In this document: positions 1,957 to 57,715 of the stretch, in pieces
How the letters are laid out: each line of letters begins with the position of its first letter
How positions within the stretch are numbered: position 1 is the stretch's first letter
Source: Candidatus Woesearchaeota archaeon
Lineage (GTDB): Archaea; Nanobdellota; Nanobdellia; Pacearchaeales; GW2011-AR1
Direction of reading: 5' to 3'
DNA: 64,000 nucleotides
NCBI GenBank assembly: GCA_964437455.1
Contig: CAYTGG010000001.1
Coordinates: 20,930 to 84,929, forward strand
Translations under genes and position numbers: made by a program
Notes under the pieces: generated by a model
The model's database searches: none
What the model saw: the letters and a program-made list of their open reading frames with translations, nothing else
What the model was told of the DNA's origin: nothing

Positions 1957-2028
1957 AGCCTGCAGAGGGATTCAAACCCCCGGCCTACTGATTACAGGTC
2001 AGTCGCTCTATCACTGAGCTATGCAGGC
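1957..2028 (-). tRNA. tRNA-Thr(UGU) candidate
   Basis: Reverse complement folds as a cloverleaf: GCCTGCA/TGCAGGC acceptor, GCTC/GAGC D-stem, ACTGA/TCAGT anticodon stem with loop CCTGTAA (anticodon TGT, unusual C33), GGGGG-TTTGAAT-CCCTC T-arm; discriminator U. Confidence 0.55.
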
Positions 2029-2082
2029 ATTTTAAAATTTAAGAGCTTAAATTAGTTTAAGCAGAAGTATTTAAAAGATTTC

Positions 2083-2634
2083 TTATTGTTCTTTTTTTTC
2101 AAATCTTTTCTCAACATTTAAAATTCTAATTTCACAAAGACTTAGTGGATAGATTTTTTTTAATTTTAAACTTAGAGATTTTTGAAGAATGCTCTTTAAA
2201 GTATCACTAAATATTTCATCTACTTTCTTGTTTTTAGAATAATCTAATAATTCTTCTTTTGTTTTTTCTCTTAAAGCTTTTCTTACTCTTTTAGAAATCT
2301 TTCTTCTAGTAACCAAAAGTGGCTTTATTCTTATCTGAGCATCCTTACATTCTAAAGAAATAGAGTCTTCAACATAATTAGTTCTCTTTCTGACAACTTT
2401 TCTTATGAATGTTTGAACTATTTCAAACTTTTTTGGTATAGAAGTAGCTTTCTCTCCATCTATTCTGACTTCTGTACTCAATAAAGCATTTTTTCCTTTA
2501 AGTATTCTTGTCAAATCGTATTTGATTATTCTTTTTTCTGTATCTTTAAGAGTATATGCATATAAATAAGTAGTTTTATTTATAATTGGAATATCTACTT
2601 CAAAAAATCTTTTTTTCTTTTTTGCTATTGCCAT
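2083..2634 (-). CDS. rps3ae: 30S ribosomal protein S3Ae (eS1)
   Basis: MAIAKKKKRFFEVDIP... the N-terminal pattern and ~185 aa length are typical of S3Ae. Confidence 0.8.
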   Translation of the reverse strand: MAIAKKKKRFFEVDIPIINKTTYLYAYTLKDTEKRIIKYDLTRILKGKNALLSTEVRIDGEKATSIPKKFEIVQTFIRKVVRKRTNYVEDSISLECKDAQIRIKPLLVTRRKISKRVRKALREKTKEELLDYSKNKKVDEIFSDTLKSILQKSLSLKLKKIYPLSLCEIRILNVEKRFEKKEQ

Positions 2635-2635
2635 T

Positions 2636-2950
2636 TTATTCTTGTATTAACTTATTTGTTCTTTTATTTCTTCTTGATTGACGATAATGTGCTTTTCCAC
2701 ATTCACTACAAATATACATAATATTTGTCTTTTTGTTTGTCTTTGTCTTCCTTTTAAATTTGCTAACTGCAGGTTTTGAATATTTTCCTTTATTTCCTAC
2801 TCCTCTACTCTGTCCTCTCAACTTTGCTCTTGATTTGCTTCCTCTAGTCAAAGTTCCTCTTTTAGAACCTGTTCCTACTACTTTAATCTTATGCTCTGTT
2901 TTTTTCCTACAATAAGGACAATATCTCTGAATCTTCTTTGGAATTTTCAT
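2636..2950 (-). CDS. rpl44e: 50S ribosomal protein L44e (eL42)
   Basis: MKIPKKIQRYCPYCRKKTEHK...YICSECGKAHYRQ matches the L44e zinc ribbon (YCP.C..H...Y.C.ECGKAH). Confidence 0.85.
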   Translation of the reverse strand: MKIPKKIQRYCPYCRKKTEHKIKVVGTGSKRGTLTRGSKSRAKLRGQSRGVGNKGKYSKPAVSKFKRKTKTNKKTNIMYICSECGKAHYRQSRRNKRTNKLIQE

Positions 2951-5522: not shown

Positions 5523-8500
5523 ATGAATAAAAAAATCCTAATAATTTTTGGAATGTTTCTTTTAATAGGAATTTTCTTAATAATAAGTATCTCAGCAACT
5601 TATATGCGTTCTAATGCTGCTTATACTACTTCTGGAACAAGTTTTAATTATAATTATGGATATTCAGGAGAATGGCAGGTTGATAGTTCTATGTGCGAGG
5701 CTGGACAAGATTTTGTAATTCAAATTGCTCCTTTTGGATGTGAGCCAGCTGTTGTCAGAAGTGATTTACTTGAAGAGCAGAATGTTCCTGTTTATTGTCA
5801 ATTAGGAGCTACTAAAATAAATCCTTTAATAGAAGTTGAAGCTATTGAAAGCATAGATTTTTCTGGAAATTATCCTAAAGAAATTGCTGGAGTTGGTTTT
5901 CATCCTGCAAAGGCAGCTTTGGGATTAGATGGAGATTTAAATTCTCCAATTTTGAATAATATTGGTTATGTAGTTATATTATTAAGACAACAATCAAATG
6001 AGTCAGAAATGCCAGATTATGTATCAGGAAATTTAACTGCTAAAATAAGATATGATATAGAAGATGCTTATGGTATCGGAGATGCAACTTTTTATCTTCC
6101 TAAATTAGATGATTTAGAATGGAATTCAAGAAAGAATCAGTATAGTTTTTGGAAAGGAAGAGGTTATCTAAGAGCAGAAGGAATTGAAACAGATGGAGCT
6201 TCAGTTTCTCTTTATGATGGAAAAATGGAAAAAATAACTTCTGTTAATCTAAAAAGAGGAGAAATCTCCAATAAGATTTATCTTCCTGGATTTGATTGTT
6301 TAGCTGGACTTAAATTGAAATTAGAAGGTTTAGAAGCTCCAGATACTCGAGCTAAGTTAGATATTAATGGAGAAATAATAGAAGTTGCAAAAGGTGAAAA
6401 GTTTTTAGAAGAAAGATGTCAGATTGAAGATATTAATAAAAAGGGACTTATAGATTTTGTTGAGATAAAATGCAGAGAAGATGAGCAAGGATTATTTGGA
6501 GGAGAAACTTTTCCTCTAAAAATTAGTCCTAAAATTAATTTGAGTATTTATAACAAAGAAGGAAATTTAATCAAAAAGGGTAGCTTTGACATAGGAGATT
6601 ATCTGTATGATTATGGGCACAAGAGAGTATATTTAGGATATGCTAATACTTTTGGATATAGTAATGAAGAAAAAGATTTGTATGTCCATCTTGTTGCTAT
6701 TCCTTCTTCTGTTAATAAGGATAAATTAACTAATGAAGAAATTGATTCTTTTACATCTTATGATAAAGGAGTTATGGGTAAAGAAGAAGTGAAAAGTATT
6801 TCTAATTTAATAAAAAGTTCATTTGAAACTTATAAGAGTATCTCTATAAATATAGGGAAGTGGATGATAAAAGGACAAAATCTAAGAGCTCTTTCTCTTG
6901 AAGAGGGAAAAACTGAGATTTTTGATTCTCAAATACAACTTCATGGTTTTGCAGGAGCACAAAATATTAAATTTGATAATAAAAAAATTGAATATTATTA
7001 TGAGAAATCTATGGAAAGTTATGATAAAATTGTAAATTCATATTCTAATGAGAAACTTCCTTATGGATTATATGAAGAAGGAATAACTTCTGGAGAAGAA
7101 GCTTTTTACAGAAAAATTTCTCTTGCATTTAGCTTAGGACAAAAAAAGACTGCTTATGATTTGTGTGAAGAGTTTAAACAAAAATATCCTAATTCAGAAA
7201 AGAATTTAAATGAATTTCTTAATGAACTTTATAAATTCTCAAATAAAGAACTTTCAAGTATAGATGTTATAATTAATGGAAAATCAAGGAAAATCTCTTT
7301 TGAAGGAATATTTGAACCAAGTATAAATGATTATTCTGCTAAAATTTTTATAGAAGGAACAGATGGAAAAATTAATGAGATTACTCTGACTAAAGGGCAG
7401 ATATATTCCTTAGGAGAATTAAGAGGAGATAAAGACTTTATCTATACTTCTTATCTGGGAGAAGCTTATCCTCTACATTTTTCATTTATATCAAATAAAT
7501 GGCATTGGTCCTTTGATAAAAAAATCTGGAAAGAAGTTTCTATAGAAGAAGGAAATAAAATTAAAGAAAATATTGATGAATACTTTACAGGAAAATTAAT
7601 TTATCCAGATTTCATTCCCTCTTCTACTATAGTAAATTCTGAGGAAATTGATTCAACAAAGAAATTATTTTATTATTTAAGTAATTTAGATGATATAAAT
7701 AGTTTTGAAAAGGGAAAAGATAAATTAAGTGAAGAAGGATATAGTGGAAGTGTTACAGAAGAGTATATTAAACTTGTAGAACTTGAAGATAACTCAGCAA
7801 AATTAGAATTTAATCTTCATCCAAAGGGTTTTTGGAGCACTGCTAAGACAGTTACAATATCAAATGATAAAGGAACATTAACAGAAGATACTCCTGAGGA
7901 CTTTGGAAGTGATTTTATTTTTACACTTACTGATGTAACTCTTAAAAAATCAGCAAAAGTTTCTGTAATACCTACAATAGATTATGCAGGCTCTGAAACC
8001 AACTTTTCTTTTAAAATTGGAATTGATAAAAGAGCAATAAAACTTTCTCCTGATAAAATTGAAGAAAAGATAGAAAATTTAAATAAGAGCATTACAGATT
8101 GGGAAGAGAAATCAGAGAAATTAGGAAAAGTTGTGAAAGGACTTAAAACTGCTTGTTTAGCTACTGGTTTATATCTTGTTACTAAGAATTTTCTTTCAAA
8201 TGCAGGAGGAAAATCAATAGCAAGACAAAATATAATGAGATCAAAAGGAGGATGGAATGAAGAATGTAGTAAGCTGGTTAAAGAAGGAAACTATTCTTCT
8301 TTAAATGAATGCTTTACTAAAAATGGAGATAAAATAGAAAGTGATGTGAATAAATATTATGAACAATTAGAAAAACAAAATAATGAAATTAAGAATATGC
8401 AAGAGCCTTTTGAGAATAAAAACTGGTGGGGTGAAAAAAATGTAAATACCGAGGAATTTAAAAAAGTTTATTGTAAGAATGTAAGAAATGAGTTAAATGG

Positions 8501-13963: not shown

Positions 13964-14875
13964 ATGTCAGAAAAAATAAAGCTTACCTTTCTTGGAACTG
14001 CTGATGCAATACCTAGTGCTAAAAGAAATCATACTTCTATTTTATTAAATTATAAAGAAGAGAACATATTAATTGATTGTGGTGAAGGAACTCAAAGGCA
14101 ATTTAGAAAGAAAAAATTAAATCCTTGTAAGGTTACTCGTATTTTAATAACTCATTGGCATGGAGATCATGTTTTAGGTATTCCTGGTTTATTATCTACT
14201 TTAGCATTTAGTGGTTATAATAAGACTCTTTATATCTATGGGCCTCAAGGAACTGAACTTTCTATAAAAAGAATTCTAGAATTATTTAATTTTAAAAGAG
14301 ATTATGAGATTAAAGTTGAGGAAATTAAAGGAGAAGGTAGAATATTTTTTGAAAATGATGATTTCTATTTAGAAGCAGAATCTATGACTCATAGAATTCC
14401 TTGTAATTCTTATACTTTTGTCAAAAAAGGTTTGAGAAAAATAGATAAAAAAAAATTGTTAAAAGTAAAATTACCTGCTGGACCTTTATTAAAAAAATTA
14501 AAAGAAGGAGAGAATATAATATATCAAGGAAAGAAGTTTTATTCTAAAGATTTAACTTTTGAGGAAAAAAATAAAAAAATCTCTTTTGTTTTGGATACCT
14601 CCTTAAATAATAAAATTGTCCCTTTTGTAAAAAACTCTGATTTATTAATTTGTGAATCTACTTTTGGTTCTGAACTTGAGGAACATGCTAAAAAATATAA
14701 ACATCTTACTTCTATCCAATCTGCACAAATTGCAAAAAGTGCTAAAGTTAAAGAACTTATTCTGATTCATATAAGTCAAAGATATAAAAATTCTAAAAAA
14801 ATTCTACAGGAAGCAAAAAAGATTTTTAAGAATGTTCAAATAGCAGAAGATTTTGATAGAATAGAAATAGAATAG
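13964..14875 (+). CDS. rnz: Ribonuclease Z (tRNase Z, metallo-beta-lactamase fold)
   Basis: LTFLGT..AIPS..RN.TS....... ILIDCGEGTQ ... ILITHWHGDHVLGIPGLL (HxHxDH motif). Confidence 0.85.
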   Translation: MSEKIKLTFLGTADAIPSAKRNHTSILLNYKEENILIDCGEGTQRQFRKKKLNPCKVTRILITHWHGDHVLGIPGLLSTLAFSGYNKTLYIYGPQGTELSIKRILELFNFKRDYEIKVEEIKGEGRIFFENDDFYLEAESMTHRIPCNSYTFVKKGLRKIDKKKLLKVKLPAGPLLKKLKEGENIIYQGKKFYSKDLTFEEKNKKISFVLDTSLNNKIVPFVKNSDLLICESTFGSELEEHAKKYKHLTSIQSAQIAKSAKVKELILIHISQRYKNSKKILQEAKKIFKNVQIAEDFDRIEIE

Positions 14876-14912
14876 AAAACCTTTTAATAGTTTTTATTTC
14901 TTCTTTTTCTAT

Positions 14913-14986
14913 GCCTCCGTAGCTCAGCTGGATAGAGCATTAGCCTTCTAAGCTAGGGGTCGCAGGTTCGAATCCTGTCGGGGGCA
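14913..14986 (+). tRNA. tRNA-Arg(UCU)
   Basis: GCCTCCG-TA-GCTC-AGCTGGATA-GAGC-A-TTAGC-CTTCTAA-GCTAG-GGGTC-GCAGG-TTCGAAT-CCTGT-CGGGGGC-A; anticodon TCT. Confidence 0.85.
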
Positions 14987-15046
14987 TTTTTATATTTTAT
15001 TTATTATCCAAAAATTTTAATACTCTGTAATTCTCTAAAAAAATAT

Positions 15047-15245
15047 GCGGAGATGGCACAGCGGCTACTGCAATCGGTTGCAGCTGAGGGGCACCAAGGT
15101 TCCCCTTACACTAACTCTTCCTTTTTGGAAAGAAGAAATGTAAGGAATTAAATGGCCTAAACCTCTTACACTAACTCTTCCTTTTTCGGAAGGGAAAGGA
15201 AAGGCAAAACCCGATTTTTCGTGGGTTCGAGTCCCACTCTCCGCT
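15047..15245 (+). tRNA. tRNA-Cys(GCA) interrupted by a 126-nt intron at the canonical 37/38 position
   Basis: Exon 1 is 15047-15083 (acceptor GCGGAGA, D-arm GCAC-AGCGGCTA-CTGC, anticodon stem ATCGG, loop TTGCAG). Exon 2 is 15210-15245 (C38, CCGAT, TTTTC, GTGGG-TTCGAGT-CCCAC, TCTCCGC, discriminator U73, the Cys identity element). The acceptor and T stems are perfect. Confidence 0.7.
15084..15209 (+). other. tRNA intron (126 nt) with a bulge-helix-bulge splice motif and an internal duplication of about 30 nt
   Basis: Exon nucleotides 32-35 (TTGC) pair with intron nucleotides n-5..n-2 (GCAA), giving a 4-bp central helix flanked by 3-nt bulges A-G|C and A-A|C. The intron holds two copies of CTTACACTAACTCTTCCTTTTT(C)GGAAG, each a CTTCC-TTTTT-GGAAG hairpin. 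Confidence 0.6.
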
Positions 15246-15264
15246 TTAAATAGATTAATAAAAT

Positions 15265-15300
15265 AATAAATTGGACGAAGAAAGGATGCTGGATCGAAAA
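15265..15300 (+). repeat. 36-nt element AATAAATTGGACGAAGAAAGGATGCTGGATCGAAAA downstream of tRNA-Cys; a near-identical copy lies downstream of tRNA-Asn at 52310-52345 (minus)
   Basis: Two mismatches between the copies; both lie about 20 nt past a tRNA 3' end in the same relative orientation. Confidence 0.6.
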
Positions 15301-15373
15301 TTTTACACAGATTTAAATAAAAATTTATGAAGATTTAGAAAAATAAATAAATCTTAATCTATTTATTATAAAG

Positions 15374-15694: not shown

Positions 15695-17194
15695 ATGAAA
15701 ATAAAAATAAAAAAAGAGGATGTTTATCTAATCATTGCAATTATAATTGCTTTAGGAACTATATTTCTTACATATTTGGGAGGAAAATCAACAGGTTTTG
15801 GAATTCTAGAAGATTATAATACAGAAGAAGAATGTGTAATTTCAGGATATTCTTGGATAAATGAAACTAACACAACTTGTACAAATATAACCACTTGTAT
15901 AAATGAAACAATTGAACAGTGTGAATGTTTAGAATATGAAATCATTAATGAAACAACTAATGAAACTGGAGACTGTATTAATTGGTCTTCTTTTGTTAAT
16001 GAAACCTGTTCTGAACAAGAAAATTGTGTAGAAGCTGTGATTGGAGGATATTGTACTGGAGATTGTAGCCCTTCTCATTTAGAGTTATGTAATGAAACAA
16101 ATTGTGAGGATATTGGAGGAGGATATTGGTATGATGAAACTTGTAATGTAGAAGAAGAATCTTCTTGTAGCAATAATTTAGAATTATGTAATGAAACAAA
16201 TTGTGAGGATATTGGAGGAGGATATTGGTATGATGAAACTTGTAATGAGGATGAATGTGATTCAGATGAACAATGTGATTCTGGTTATGAATGTGATGAT
16301 GGAGAATGTGTAATTTTAGAAAATGAAACTGAAATCTCTGAAGAAACTGAAACAACAGAATCTGCTTCTGAAAGTTCTGAAATTTCTGAGAGTATTACTC
16401 AAATAACTCCTAATTCTGAAGAGGTAATTTCCACAACAGAATTAACTATTTATGATATTTCAAAAATAGAATTAAAATCTTTACAATCTCAGGAAAATGT
16501 TTTGATAGCTAAAAATACAGGAACAGAACCTTTAAGCTCTTGTATACTTAAAGCTACAGGAGATTTATCTGATTGGATTAGTATTTCTGGAGAATCTAAG
16601 AATATAGGCTCTGGAGAAGAAAAGTCATTTAATTTTGTCTTGAATATTCCTGAAGGAACTAATCCCGGATCTTACAATATGGGTCTTTCAATAGAGTGCT
16701 CTGAATTAAGCAAAGGAAAAGAATTTTCTGTTAGTGTTATTAAAGAAACTTTTGAATTTGATCTTCTTAAAGTAAAGAAAATAAGAGATGAAAGAGTTAA
16801 AGCAGAATATACTCTTTCAGATTTATCAGGATTAGACCAAAGTATTAAATTAGATTTTAAACTTATAGATAATCAAAGTAAAAAAGTTTCTGAAACCACT
16901 GAGTTCAAAAATCTAAGTGCTAATCTTTCAAACAAGTTTTATACCCTTTTAGAAATTAATGAATCAGTAGAGGGAAATTTAACTTTAATGGTAGACTTAA
17001 ACTCAGAAACTTATTCAAGTTCTGTCCAAGAGCCAATAGTTCTTACTTCTCCACCAATTTTAGGTTTTGCTGTCTTTGATAACATAGGAGATTTAGGAAA
17101 CATAATTCTTTTAGTATCTTCTTTACTAGTATTATTTCTCTTAATCTTTTTAATAAGAAGAATTAGAAAGAGATCTAAAAAGAAAAATTCTTAA
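15695..17194 (+). CDS. Acidic Cys-rich repeat surface protein with N-terminal signal/TM, many N-x-T/S sequons, a C-terminal Ig-like region and a C-terminal TM anchor with basic tail
   Basis: Internal exact repeat LELCNETNCEDIGGGYWYDETCN x2 (nt 16083-16150 and 16176-16243); many sequons of the NET/NIT/NES type; C-terminus ...SPPILGFAVF...LLVLFLLIFLIRRIRKRSKKK resembles a PGF-CTERM-like sorting signal. Confidence 0.55.
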   Translation: MKIKIKKEDVYLIIAIIIALGTIFLTYLGGKSTGFGILEDYNTEEECVISGYSWINETNTTCTNITTCINETIEQCECLEYEIINETTNETGDCINWSSFVNETCSEQENCVEAVIGGYCTGDCSPSHLELCNETNCEDIGGGYWYDETCNVEEESSCSNNLELCNETNCEDIGGGYWYDETCNEDECDSDEQCDSGYECDDGECVILENETEISEETETTESASESSEISESITQITPNSEEVISTTELTIYDISKIELKSLQSQENVLIAKNTGTEPLSSCILKATGDLSDWISISGESKNIGSGEEKSFNFVLNIPEGTNPGSYNMGLSIECSELSKGKEFSVSVIKETFEFDLLKVKKIRDERVKAEYTLSDLSGLDQSIKLDFKLIDNQSKKVSETTEFKNLSANLSNKFYTLLEINESVEGNLTLMVDLNSETYSSSVQEPIVLTSPPILGFAVFDNIGDLGNIILLVSSLLVLFLLIFLIRRIRKRSKKKNS

Positions 17195-18737: not shown

Positions 18738-19796
18738 ATGTTTATTGAAAATATTCTAAACTTTTTTTTAGAAAATAACTCTTCTAGAGACTATATCATT
18801 TCAGCAGGAATATTTCTAGGACTTTTCTTAATTCTTAAGTTTTTTAATTCTTATTTTGTTTATATTCTAAAAAAGATTACCAAAAAATTAAAAACAACTT
18901 GGAAAAATCTTGTTATTGATTTTCTTGAGGCAATTAAATGGCCCTTTTATGCTTATTTAGCATTTTATATTGCTACAGCATACTTAGTATTGTCAGAAAT
19001 TCTTAGTAAGATTCTTTTTTATATATTAATTGTTTTTATTACTTTTTATATTTCTAAAGGAGTAATTAGTATTTCTAATCATTTTTTTGAAAGATATAGA
19101 GAAAAGAAAAAAAGAAAGAATGAAAAGACAAGCGAATCAATGATTAATGTAATGAAATTTATTGTTAAAATTCTTATTTGGACATTTGCTTTATTGATGA
19201 TTCTTTATAATTTTGGAATTCAAATAACTCCTTTAATTGCTGGTTTAGGTGTTGGAGGTATTGCTATTGGTTTAGCATTACAAAATATTCTTAGTGATTT
19301 GTTTTCAGCTTTTGCAATTTATTTTGATAAACCTTTTGAGGAGGGCGATTTTATAATTGTGGGAAATGATATGGGTGTGGTAAAGTATATTGGAATAAAA
19401 TCAACAAGAATTCAAGCATTAGGAGGACAAGAATTAGTTGTTTCTAACAGGGAACTCACATCTATAAGAATTAATAATTATAAAAAGATGAACACAAGAA
19501 GAGTCTTATTTAATTTTGGTGTAGAGTATGGTACTAGCAATAATAAATTAAAAAAAATAAAAAAAATCTTAGAAGAGATTATAAAAAAAGAAGAACATGC
19601 AAATTTAGATAGAGTTCATTTTAAAGAGTTTGGAAATTCAAGTTTGAATTTTGAAGTTGTTTATTATGTTGACTCAAAAGATTATAATGTTTATATGGAT
19701 ACTCAAGAAAAAATTAATCTAAAGATAAAAGAATCTCTAGAGAAAGAGAAAATTAGTTTTGCATTTCCTTCTACGAGTGTTTATATGAAAGATTAA
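18738..19796 (+). CDS. Small-conductance mechanosensitive channel (MscS family)
   Basis: TM3 with GLGVGGIAIGLALQNILSDLFS followed by the beta domain (GDFIIVGNDMGVVKYIGIKSTRIQALGGQELVVSN). Confidence 0.85.
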   Translation: MFIENILNFFLENNSSRDYIISAGIFLGLFLILKFFNSYFVYILKKITKKLKTTWKNLVIDFLEAIKWPFYAYLAFYIATAYLVLSEILSKILFYILIVFITFYISKGVISISNHFFERYREKKKRKNEKTSESMINVMKFIVKILIWTFALLMILYNFGIQITPLIAGLGVGGIAIGLALQNILSDLFSAFAIYFDKPFEEGDFIIVGNDMGVVKYIGIKSTRIQALGGQELVVSNRELTSIRINNYKKMNTRRVLFNFGVEYGTSNNKLKKIKKILEEIIKKEEHANLDRVHFKEFGNSSLNFEVVYYVDSKDYNVYMDTQEKINLKIKESLEKEKISFAFPSTSVYMKD

Positions 19797-52260: not shown

Positions 52261-52290
52261 TTTTTTAAAACGTCCCCGGTAGGACTCAAA
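52261..52290 (-). repeat. Partial duplicate of the tRNA-Asn 3' end (T-loop to discriminator plus 10 nt of 3' flank): a direct repeat with 52348-52376
   Basis: ttttttaaaaCGTCCCCGGTAGGACTCa versus tttttttaaaaCGTCCCCGGTAGGACTCg; about 28 bp of direct repeat separated by roughly 60 bp. Confidence 0.75.
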
Positions 52291-52309
52291 CTTGAAAACC
52301 TCCTGCGGG

Positions 52310-52345
52310 TTTTCTATCCAGCATCCATTCTTCGTCCAATTTATT
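52310..52345 (-). repeat. Second copy of the 36-nt element (AATAAATTGGACGAAGAATGGATGCTGGATAGAAAA) between tRNA-Asn and its partial duplicate
   Basis: 34/36 identity with 15265-15300; the homology extends upstream (ATTAATAAA). Confidence 0.6.
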
Positions 52346-52358
52346 AATTTTTTTAAAA

Positions 52359-52432
52359 CGTCCCCGGTAGGACTCGAACCTACGACACCACGGTTAACAG
52401 CCGTGCGCTCTGACCAACTGAGCTACGGGGAC
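52359..52432 (-). tRNA. tRNA-Asn(GUU)
   Basis: Reverse complement GTCCCCG-TA-GCTC-AGTTGGTCA-GAGC-G-CACGG-CTGTTAA-CCGTG-GTGTC-GTAGG-TTCGAGT-CCTAC-CGGGGAC-G. Confidence 0.85.
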
Positions 52433-52468
52433 ATAAATGAAATAAAAGATATTTGCTTTTAAAGTTTA

Positions 52469-55693: not shown

Positions 55694-57715
55694 TTATACT
55701 TTCTGTACATAACCTCTTCTAGGCTTAAAAATCTCTCCGTGTGCATTTAATTTATCTATAGCTTCTTCGATTTCTTCTTTTTTTAATCTTCCTTCTAATT
55801 CATTTTCAATTTCTTCAACAGGAATCATTTTTCCAATTTTACTTTCTAATTCAATTATAGTTTCTCTTACTGTTAATATTTTGTTCCTTTGAGATGAAGA
55901 GAAAGTTCCTGATATTCTATCAATATCAAAGGTTTTTGATTCATAATCATAACCTACTTGCATTAAATAATATTTCATTATATCTATTGCTCTTCTAGCA
56001 TCTTCTACTGTTACTTTTTCACTTAGTCTTAATTTTGCAGAAGCTTCTGACATTCTTATCAATGCTTGTAATTGTCTTGCTGAAATTGGAATAGGTCGCA
56101 TCGCACTTTCAGAGGTTACAGGACGATTTCTTAATTCAACATAAAATTTTTTTATTTCTGTTCCTGCTTCTTCACTTAAAACAGGTTTTATCTTTTGTTT
56201 AGCATATGCTACATACTTTCTAAAAAGATCTCTTGAAATTAACATATCCTCCCCCTGTTTTTTATGTTCTGATAAAACATGAATAGCAATAAGTTCATCT
56301 TTTTTTCTATCAGGAATATCTCTTAATGTAAAAATTATATCAAATCTATTTATTAAAGTTGGAGGCATATCAATTTGTTGTGCTATTGATTGATATGGAT
56401 CAAATCTTCCGAATTTAGGATTTGCTGCTGCTAATACACTGGTTTCTGAACGAAGAGTGGCTTGAACATTTGCTTTCGAAACTGTAATAGTCTGTTGTTC
56501 CATTGCTTCGTGCATAGAACTTCTATCATTGGGATCCATTTTTTCTAATTCATCTACACAAACTAATCCCTTATTTGCTAAAACCATGGCTCCTGCTTCT
56601 AAAGACCATCCTCTTAAATATTCATCTCTTACTACTGAAGCAGTTAATCCTGCACCAGATGCACTTTTTCCTACTACATATCTTCCTTTTGGTGAAATAC
56701 CTGCCATAAATCCTAAAGTGTGACTCTTAGCTACTCCAGGATCTCCTATTAATAAAATATGAATGTCTCCTCTGTTCTTTGAACCATCCTTGTTAATTTT
56801 TTTAACTCCTCCAAACAATTGTAAAATTAATGATTTTTTTATTTCATCATATCCCCAAATGCTTGGAGTTATACTTTGAGATAACTTATCAAATATACTG
56901 GGATCCTCAGATAGTTCAAGAATCTGCTTCTCATCCTCTTCTCCTATATCTAATTCCTCAAAGGTCTCTTCTAAGGGTATGAGATTGTTTGCTTCCATAG
57001 CTAATTGAAATCTTGTAGATAATCCTCCTGAACTTAAAGGAACTGGAACCTCTTTTAAAACTCCAATGACTTTAATTCTACTTCCTGGAGTGGTCTTCTC
57101 CTCCATTCTTGGTTCTACTAAATCTTCTTTTATAAAAATATCTAATCTTTTTGGTTGTTCTCCTCCTGATAGAGATTCTGTAGGTTCTTCTATTACTAAT
57201 CTTTGAGTATCAACCATCTCTTTACTTATTAGTCTAAATCCTCCTTTTCTTCCACAAGAGCATCTAGTTGGTTCTCTAAATTTCTTTTCAACTTGAAGAA
57301 CTGAGATTATTGTTCCACAACTTGGACATTCAAATTTAGCATTGACCACTTGAGGTCTTACATCTGAAGCTTGCCTTATTATTCCTTCTAAAGCAATCAT
57401 TTCATTTAAATGTCTAGAACGAATATCTCTTATTTTTATTTCTTGACTTTTTGGAATATTAAATAATCTAATTCTTACATTTTTTAATAAGCCTAATTCT
57501 TCAATTGCTAATTCTACGATTCCTAAAGTCTCTTCTGGATTTGAAAGAATTTCTTCTGATAATTTGCTTGAGAATTCTGTAAGTTTCATAAAATCTAAGA
57601 AAACAACACTATTTCCTTTTCTTATAGAATCTCCTAAATCTTTTTTGTAAAAATCAAAGAAATTTTTAGCTTCAATCATCAATCCGTCTTTTTTTGACCT
57701 TTCATTTTCCACCAT
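55694..57715 (-). CDS. mcm: MCM replicative helicase
   Basis: Zn finger CPSCG...CSCG, Walker A GDPGVAKS, Walker B CVDELEKM, arginine finger SRFD, C-terminal WH. Confidence 0.95.
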   Translation of the reverse strand: MVENERSKKDGLMIEAKNFFDFYKKDLGDSIRKGNSVVFLDFMKLTEFSSKLSEEILSNPEETLGIVELAIEELGLLKNVRIRLFNIPKSQEIKIRDIRSRHLNEMIALEGIIRQASDVRPQVVNAKFECPSCGTIISVLQVEKKFREPTRCSCGRKGGFRLISKEMVDTQRLVIEEPTESLSGGEQPKRLDIFIKEDLVEPRMEEKTTPGSRIKVIGVLKEVPVPLSSGGLSTRFQLAMEANNLIPLEETFEELDIGEEDEKQILELSEDPSIFDKLSQSITPSIWGYDEIKKSLILQLFGGVKKINKDGSKNRGDIHILLIGDPGVAKSHTLGFMAGISPKGRYVVGKSASGAGLTASVVRDEYLRGWSLEAGAMVLANKGLVCVDELEKMDPNDRSSMHEAMEQQTITVSKANVQATLRSETSVLAAANPKFGRFDPYQSIAQQIDMPPTLINRFDIIFTLRDIPDRKKDELIAIHVLSEHKKQGEDMLISRDLFRKYVAYAKQKIKPVLSEEAGTEIKKFYVELRNRPVTSESAMRPIPISARQLQALIRMSEASAKLRLSEKVTVEDARRAIDIMKYYLMQVGYDYESKTFDIDRISGTFSSSQRNKILTVRETIIELESKIGKMIPVEEIENELEGRLKKEEIEEAIDKLNAHGEIFKPRRGYVQKV

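Follow-up and report, generated by a model that had tools for sequence, protein, structure and literature searches.

The intron of archaeal tRNA-Trp hosts a box C/D sRNA. In Caldiarchaeum, tRNA fragments lie next to a recombinase-bearing insert at the tRNA-Thr locus (PMC3293823). REP/Correia-type elements, or 'putative mobile promoters', are short structured multi-copy repeats that lie upstream of unrelated genes and supply expression signals (PMC3575422). The element described here has features in common with all three. On balance, we consider it probable that a 36-nt sequence located behind two archaeal tRNA genes forms the best-conserved part of a dispersed DPANN repeat family that is prone to tandem arrangement, and that the two copies are reduced relics of that family.

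The window (the whole stretch of 64,000 nt that was analyzed, from contig CAYTGG010000001.1 of a Candidatus Woesearchaeota archaeon) has a G+C content of 26.8%. Its genes include those for archaeal TFB, Sm, RNase Z, FtsZ, aIF1A, aIF2-beta, and MCM; homologues of its RNase Z carry the source name Candidatus Pacearchaeota/Nanoarchaeia. A pattern scan recovered exactly two copies of the 36-mer in the window, at 15265-15300 on the plus strand and at 52310-52345 on the minus strand. The identity of 34/36 given in the first-pass annotation was reproduced, and none of 100 dinucleotide-preserving shuffles contained such a match. The two tRNAs do lie on opposite strands, as had been stated, tRNA-Cys on the plus and tRNA-Asn on the minus strand. 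Each copy is located 3' of its tRNA and in the same orientation; the spacing, which had been put at about 20 nt for both, is 19 nt for tRNA-Cys and only 12 nt for tRNA-Asn. The flanks had been described as diverging on both sides, and this had to be corrected. Alignment of both loci showed that the likeness continues for approximately 9 nt upstream (ATTAATAAA) and, for the Asn copy and the strain variants of the Cys locus, for 21 nt downstream (CYCGCAGGAGGTTTTCAA), after which a second copy of the tRNA 3' end follows. The 36-mer is part of a longer element of 57-66 nt. The window copies are 95% identical, and the DNA outside of the element and the flanking tRNA-end repeats is unrelated between the two loci. 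A covariance-model scan with the filters off found no further copies in the window; a match at 56759-56825 was rejected as spurious, being located inside the MCM gene. The features of both loci are summarized in Table 1.

Table 1. Coordinates of the tRNA genes, repeated tRNA ends, and element copies in the window.
Feature	Position	Strand	Remark
tRNA-Cys(GCA)	15047..15245	+	ARAGORN, introns allowed, and on spliced sequence
tRNA-Cys exon 1	15047-15083	+	
tRNA-Cys intron, 126 nt, canonical position	15084-15209	+	
tRNA-Cys exon 2 and discriminator	15210-15245	+	
X1(Cys): last 20 nt of tRNA-Cys from G53 (GTTCGAGTCCCACTCTCCGC) and 8-nt trailer (TTTAAATA)	15225..15252	+	
Truncated element copy (GATTAATAAAATAATAAATTGGACGAAGAAAGGATGCTGGATCGAAAA)	15253..15300	+	includes 36-mer 15265-15300
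11-nt filler (TTTTACACAGA), then second TTTAAATA opening the native tRNA-Cys trailer	15301..15319	+	
tRNA-Asn(GTT)	52358..52433	-	
X1(Asn): G53 to tRNA-Asn 3' end (21 nt) and 10-nt trailer (TTTTAAAAAA)	52349..52379	-	
Complete reduced element, 57 nt: ATTAATAAATTGGACGAAGAATGGATGCTGGATAGAAAACCCGCAGGAGGTTTTCAA	52292..52348	-	
Hairpin 2: GAAAACC / CGCAGGA / GGTTTTC	52294..52314	-	
X2(Asn): displaced second tRNA-Asn 3' end and trailer (GTTTGAG...), one mismatch to X1	52261..52291	-	

The tRNA-Cys gene was missed by default scans owing to its intron, and ARAGORN calls it when introns are allowed or when the gene is spliced in silico. In the strain variants, the duplicated segment on either side of the element is X1(Cys). 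Of the conserved core, the window copy retains no more than the first 17 nt (15284-15300); it has no hairpin 2, and the truncated unit is bracketed by an 8-nt direct repeat (TTTAAATA). Complete units are present at this locus in strains L003, L004, L008, and L009; in the comparison strains L004 and L003, the array ends in a full X copy, which is followed by the same native trailer. To judge from these alignments, the window Cys copy is a truncated terminal unit. It scored 11 bits against the family covariance model, which is not significant, whereas the strain variants of the locus have the full core. The next ATG is 73 nt away from this copy.

At the tRNA-Asn locus, the element is bracketed by the two copies of a 31-nt segment, X1(Asn) and X2(Asn). 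The element contains both the 36-mer and the conserved core (52293-52326), and it scored 51 bits against the family covariance model (E about 1e-9). Its hairpin 2 carries a Shine-Dalgarno-like AGGAGGT, one half of which is in the loop and the other in the stem. The element is followed by the copy of the tRNA end, and the next ATG is located 68 nt away; 3' of X2(Asn) lies the native trailer and then a nitroreductase gene.

A scan of JGI/ENA metagenome contigs revealed 28 loci with the exact hairpin-2 string GAAAACNCGCAGGAGGTTTTC. All 28 share GGATGCTGGAT just upstream of this string, their flanks are conserved, and almost all have a G+C content of 29-37%. Exact look-ups of the neighbouring proteins identified the hosts as Nanoarchaeota/Nanoarchaeia MAGs, with one Micrarchaeia locus on contig L028 (58% G+C; host Candidatus Micrarchaeia). 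The family core reads GGATGCTGGAT-N-GAAAACC CGCAGGA GGTTTTC, with GGTTTTCA as its last arm. The usual form is a unit of approximately 70 nt with two hairpins. In hairpin 1, the stem (7 bp) varies in sequence and the loop, UCGGAGGCAA..AAAAG, is conserved; the linker between the hairpins, GGAUGCUGGAU, is invariant. Hairpin 2 is GAAAACC-CGCAGGA-GGUUUUC, including AGGAGGU, and its invariance is uninformative because it served as the search key.

A covariance model (R1) was built from 15 units and gave 63 matches in the fetched DNA. In hairpin 1, compensatory changes occur in 7/7 pairs, and 97% of the cells are paired compared to 82% in shuffles, with 0/500 shuffles reaching 97%; these counts lean on an alignment that was fitted to the model. 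Slid controls of hairpin 1 collapsed. RNAalifold, run unguided, returned the same two hairpins. G-U pairs outnumber A-C mismatches 19 to 5, which favours an RNA of the sense strand.

The two window copies differ from this usual form. In the covariance-model alignments they keep a loop-like remnant (TTGGACGAAGAA) of hairpin 1 but no stem, and unlike typical family members they have no start codon 0-3 nt downstream. Folding of the 36-mer and of the window units detected no significant structure (z of -0.4 to -0.5 relative to shuffles). The family also includes 'core-only' copies without hairpin 1, all of which begin at the same point, GGATGCTGG; the window copies resemble this subclass and by their sequence would belong to it. 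The structure that might have been expected of a small RNA gene, one of the suggestions of the first-pass annotation, is found in the covarying hairpins of the family and not in the copies behind the two tRNAs, in which hairpin 1 is missing and folding is not stronger than in shuffles. The same holds when the element is considered as a riboswitch or gene-specific leader: the family has covarying structure, the window copies do not, and the genes downstream form no coherent set.

In approximately 17 of the 23 distinct loci, the ATG of a substantial ORF follows the end of the unit within 0-3 nt, a rate that is partly ascertainment-biased through the use of hairpin 2 as search key. In these start-adjacent units, AGGAGGU precedes the start by 6-8 nt. 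It is half enclosed in hairpin 2 and is the predicted, strong Shine-Dalgarno sequence of the adjoining gene. The downstream genes are functionally unrelated (S17e, L41e-like, T2SS-F-type, DMT transporter, wHTH, SMC-like, and HAD hydrolase). The gene upstream of the units is co-directional in some loci and divergent in others; since it is sometimes divergent, the element belongs to 5' leaders and not only to intercistronic spacers. Family units are often found in tandem with a period of 67 (4.2 copies in L034), and the upstream units in these arrays are degenerate and older-looking. From covariation and position, we infer that a typical copy is a portable Shine-Dalgarno leader or repeat that acts at the RNA level. 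Such copies would be portable translation-initiation leaders that multiply head-to-tail.

Like REP/Correia-type elements, the units are located upstream of unrelated genes, the signal in this case being a Shine-Dalgarno hairpin. Unlike them, the element has neither inverted repeats at its termini nor a short target duplication of constant size, is archaeal (DPANN), is arranged in head-to-tail tandem, keeps an invariant core of approximately 35 nt across phyla, and is also found in tRNA introns. Several further candidates were rejected. A MITE does not fit because the two ends, ATTAATAAA... and ...GGTTTTCAA, do not form an inverted repeat, and because the flank duplications are not of fixed length (13, 14, 19, 28, and 31 nt). 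In a CRISPR array reading, both alternating parts turned out to be constant within a locus, and no cas families are present in the neighbourhood. Reading GGATGCTGGAT... as an upstream ORF was discarded, since copies differ by a 1-nt indel that disrupts the frame. A promoter with its TATA box in the loop of hairpin 1 was unsupported; many copies have CAAAGAAAAG at this place, which is not TATA-like.

Like intron-hosted archaeal RNAs, family members, including tandem arrays, reside in tRNA-Ile introns. The tRNA-Ile gene of L020 (93-286) has one unit and a degenerate one in its intron, and that of L039 (680-994) has about three tandem units. On L028, the Micrarchaeia contig, the intron of the tRNA-Ile gene (6114-6242) consists almost entirely of the core. 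Unlike the intron-hosted box C/D sRNA, the element has no C/D boxes, the window copies are located outside of the mature tRNA, and most copies are found in 5' leaders; a box C/D sRNA was rejected given that the C box RUGAUGA and the D box CUGA are absent from the 57-nt element and from the family consensus. One further family member, in L043, is located directly behind a tRNA.

Each family unit has four invariant GGA motifs. A factor that reads these motifs possibly binds the typical copies; that the motifs make the core the operator and decoy of a global translational regulator seems unlikely to us. Like the Csr/Rsm RNAs (RsmY, RF00195), the units combine a tandem arrangement with several invariant GGA motifs, of which two lie in hairpin loops and one overlaps the Shine-Dalgarno sequence. 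In an Rfam search with a tandem array, RsmY was the best non-tRNA match, with 21.5 bits compared to a gathering score of 57; this weak match is explained by the four GGA motifs per unit. Unlike for RsmY, no CsrA homologue was seen and the hosts are archaea and not bacteria, so that the likeness is an analogy only. The array in question is that of L034 (9857-9957), for which cmscan gave an E-value of 0.003 in a 381-nt search.

The likeness to Csr/Rsm RNAs leads to an alternative that we regard as improbable, namely that the unit behind the tRNAs is functional. It would be a small transcription unit, or it would be co-transcribed with the tRNA and released by the tRNA-processing enzymes, and its product, with three or four invariant GGA motifs, would bind a translational regulator or the anti-Shine-Dalgarno sequence as a Csr/Rsm-like decoy. 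A TATA-like trailer (TTTAAATA or TTTTAAAAAA) located approximately 20-30 nt upstream of the core, together with the tRNA 3' end and a T run at the end, is consistent with such a transcript. So are the invariance of the GGA-containing loops and linker across two DPANN phyla, the 95% identity of the two window copies in unrelated surroundings, the weak resemblance of the tandem array to RsmY, and the copies and arrays inside tRNA introns; archaea excise tRNA introns as stable RNAs. However, the RsmY score is far under the threshold of that family, approximately 600 kb of fetched DNA contain no CsrA-like gene, the folding of the window units does not exceed that of shuffled sequence, approximately 100 kb of this organism contain no 5'-UTR target copies, and the copy number is unstable between strains.

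The distribution of the family was compared among relatives. The core is not present behind tRNA-Cys in the sister species (77% RNase Z identity, from the same samples), and four further relatives (approximately 69% identity) have no copy in approximately 80 kb of syntenic DNA. The tRNA-Cys trailer of the sister species shares ACGAAGAAAG with the 5' part of the 36-mer; by this comparison, the shared part could belong to the native trailer and not to the element, or the insertion could be of greater age than our reading assumes. The contigs that KH-protein homologues retrieved in a search for the Asn locus of this species were not syntenic. Because the sister species and the other relatives are without copies, the family is patchy: it is abundant in some DPANN lineages, and here there are two reduced copies behind tRNAs, with none in the 5'-UTRs of the approximately 100 kb of this organism.

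Searches of the GTDB genomes with the 5' half of the element (GGACGAAGAANGGATGCTGGAT) returned two chance bacterial matches only, and the JGI metagenome contigs and IMG/VR returned no match to it. No copy of the element was found in IMG/VR or in phage and plasmid collections, including blastn searches against phages and plasmids. With Rfam 15, only tRNAs were detected, both in the window at gathering scores and in seven element-rich loci at E<=1. Literature searches by topic and by sequence string returned no description of the element family, and the repeat/leader family is apparently undescribed.

These distributions bear on the first suggestion made for the 36-mer, that it is a conserved tRNA 3' processing or transcription-termination signal, to which we now give almost no credence. 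Both copies are located 12-19 nt downstream of a tRNA and in its orientation, and an RNase Z gene is nearby. Against this, only two of the ten tRNAs in the window have the element and the other eight do not, the orthologous tRNA-Cys of the sister species and relatives is without the core, the copy number differs between strains, and the family mostly precedes protein start codons. An occurrence at many non-tRNA sites had been named in the first-pass annotation as the observation that would speak against a tRNA-linked role, and this is what the family shows.

At both loci, the duplicated tRNA end starts at G53 of the T arm and runs through the 8-10 nt trailer. The resulting direct repeat that flanks the element is 28 nt long at the Cys locus (in the strain variants) and 31 nt at the Asn locus (in the window). 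At the start of the duplication, tRNA-Cys and tRNA-Asn have the T-loop sequence GTTCGAGTCC in common. Like archaeal tRNA-integrating elements (those with SSV/pNOB8-type integrases, and the Caldiarchaeum insert), the locus shows an insert behind an intact tRNA that is followed by a partial copy of the tRNA 3' end, and natural populations are heterogeneous at the locus. Unlike in these elements, the insert comprises 57-66 nt and not kilobases, there is no recombinase gene or kilobase-sized cargo between the repeats, the same insert is found at two tRNAs with different repeated cores, and most of the family is not located at tRNAs.

Copy number at the two loci was compared among co-occurring strains, whose loci were fetched from independent assemblies of related samples by exact-protein look-up of the RNase Z and nitroreductase genes next to them. 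The unit of tRNA 3' piece plus element is present in 1-3 tandem copies; these numbers are from short-read metagenome assemblies in which several contigs end inside arrays, and the exact counts could be partly assembly-dependent. At the Cys locus, the unit in the strains consists of GTTCGAGTCCCACTCTCCGC TTTAAATA followed by a 66-nt element. L004 has one full unit and then the native trailer, L003 and L006 have two units, and L008/L009 have two units plus a truncated terminal unit (period 94, 2.8 copies). The window and L005 have the truncated terminal unit only, with TTTTACACAGA in place of hairpin 2 and the second tRNA end. At the Asn locus, one unit is present in the window, L013, and L014, and two are present in L015-L017. 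The units differ from one another by SNPs (CTC/CCC; GTTCGAG/GTTTGAG; CCGGGGACG/CCGGTGACG), and for this reason the alleles are real and not pure assembly noise. In L015, the internal repeat starts like X2 (GTTTGAG) and runs into the element like X1; a distal-type start with a proximal-type continuation is the expected product of an unequal exchange between X2 and X1.

The contigs of several independent assemblies (L006, L007, L010, and L047-L050) end within the tRNA-Cys array or directly behind it. Over the arrays, gene callers predict spurious ORFs on the antisense strand (e.g., one of 119 aa in L006).

The arrangement at both loci could alternatively be an attachment-site scar, which we consider unlikely. 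A plasmid or virus with an attP matching the tRNA 3' end would have integrated through site-specific recombination to give attL (the intact tRNA) and attR (the displaced copy), its cargo would later have been deleted down to the 57-66 nt of fused ends, and arrays would have formed by repeated integration or unequal exchange. The direct repeat of the tRNA 3' end that brackets the insert at both loci is the classic att arrangement, archaeal integrative elements usually insert at tRNA genes, close relatives are without the element, as is expected for foreign DNA, and contigs break at the arrays in several assemblies. In contrast, Pfam lists contain no integrase or recombinase within 10 kb of either locus, the IMG/VR, phage, and plasmid collections contain no copy, and two tRNAs with unlike repeated cores have the same insert of only 57-66 nt. 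Elsewhere, moreover, the core is found before housekeeping genes, in tRNA introns, and with flank duplications that are not derived from a tRNA. Of the three readings offered by the first-pass annotation, the edge of a mobile element that targets tRNA genes nevertheless comes closest to the evidence: the repeated tRNA ends and the variable copy number agree with it, whereas the size of 57-66 nt, the lack of an integrase, and the wider occurrence of the family do not.

Flank duplications were also detected at non-tRNA sites, with lengths of 13 nt in L019, 14 nt in L025, and 19 nt in L038. The duplication in L019 is a promoter-like sequence, CCTTTAAAAACTT; those in L025 and L038 are located at a gene end. 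Because flank duplications are not restricted to tRNA sites, a general process is favoured over a tRNA-specific integrase. No standard transposase accounts for duplications of 13-31 nt, and a flank duplication is missing from most full-length family copies.

In the orthologous locus of L025 (approximately 2560-2680, minus strand) and L038 (approximately 1990-2110, plus strand), the string ATG(C/G)CAAG... has three occurrences: one closes the upstream gene, one follows the element directly and forms a 5-codon ORF (MPSYT*/MASLT*), and one opens the downstream gene. Its sequence co-varies between the two species.

The flank duplications could also be the work of a self-inserting mini-element, an explanation to which we assign a very low probability. 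An enzyme with long staggered cuts or target-primed copying (of the Cas1/casposase or retroposon type) would make target duplications of 13-31 nt, a constant 3' end, and tandem insertions beside the element's own end, and it could seed tRNA introns. The constant right end (GGAGGTTTTCA), which is joined to different duplicated targets at five loci, would be explained, as would the short core-only forms, the head-to-tail arrays, and the presence in tRNA introns of two phyla. However, no candidate enzyme was identified, the core-only copies start at one point and not at random truncation points, and the full copies mostly have no flank duplication. Furthermore, the compensatory changes in hairpin 1 between loci point to old, individually maintained copies and not to recent transposition. 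A broader version, in which the core is an active, enzyme-light mobile RNA/DNA module that enters both tRNA genes (as introns and as T-loop/3'-end duplications) and 5' leaders, seems distinctly unlikely to us. If it were true, the family would be a living example of the origin of archaeal tRNA introns and disrupted tRNA genes.

For the reduced relics of a dispersed repeat family, which is the reading that we prefer, each window copy would have arrived in a single recombination or template-switch event, with the shared T-loop sequence GTTCGAGTCC serving as return point. Both duplications would start at the same tRNA position because this return point is common to the two tRNAs. With re-entry upstream of the exit point, the stretch in between would be duplicated automatically. 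Alternatively, a copy may have been transferred from one tRNA to the other by such an event. The duplicated tRNA ends of 28-31 nt and the element copies would then be substrates for unequal exchange or slippage, which would change the length of the arrays. Because they have no adjoining start codon and have lost hairpin 1, the window copies are most likely neutral relics and not signals for tRNA processing or termination.

The full family unit may itself have a similar origin. Its first ~20 nt (e.g., TCGAATCCATCGGAGGCA) align with the region from the T-loop to the 3' end of tRNA-Arg(TCT) (TCGAATCCTGTCGGGGGCA), and two strings of the core recur in this tRNA, GCTGGATAGA in the D loop and CGCAGG in the T stem. 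For most copies, tRNA-Arg(TCT) is the best match in the right register, with marginal p-values of about 0.04-0.12 per copy. On the basis of these alignments, the ~70-nt unit may be an old unit of tRNA 3' end, trailer, and core. If the likeness is real, the widespread unit has the same architecture that is now being generated at tRNA-Cys and tRNA-Asn.

If our reading of the family is true, a single core of approximately 35 nt, present in at least two DPANN phyla, gives ribosome-binding leaders to many unrelated genes; the same core also invades tRNA introns, duplicates tRNA 3' ends, and is polymorphic within one natural population. It would then be a testable system for translation initiation in ultra-small archaea, for the origin of archaeal tRNA introns and fragmented tRNA genes, and for the spread of short repeats without an obvious transposase. 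For annotation, it would explain the assembly breaks behind tRNA genes and the spurious ORF calls at these places.

The intron of tRNA-Cys does not match the element model. In it, a hairpin-forming unit is present twice as a 60-nt tandem duplication, with the repeats located at 15102-15132 and 15162-15192. In strain L004 (11084-11200), the intron has a single copy of this unit, and the tRNA-Cys of the sister species (L047 3480-3552) is intron-less; the intron is therefore recent and length-polymorphic. The gene order RNase Z, tRNA-Arg(TCT), and often then tRNA-Cys is kept in Pacearchaeota relatives (window 13964-14987; L047-L056). At the position of tRNA-Arg in L051/L052, the sequence reads as a tRNA-Arg(TCT) with an interruption of approximately 90 nt, which the ARAGORN default scan does not call. 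The stop codon of the RNase Z gene in the window is spanned by a perfect 11-nt tandem duplication (ATAGAATAGAA x2, 14856-14877), which is located just upstream of the tRNA-Arg promoter region.

Downstream of tRNA-Cys, a Cys/Asn/Glu-rich secreted protein (15695-17194) contains the internal repeat 'LELCNETNCEDIGGGYWYDETCN', and its length differs between strains (499, 501, 529, and 532 aa among the window, L003, L004, and L005). A gene for an MscS-type channel (18738-19796) is present in the window, L003, and L005 and is missing from L004 (around 14770-14880), a presence/absence polymorphism close to the tRNA-Cys locus.
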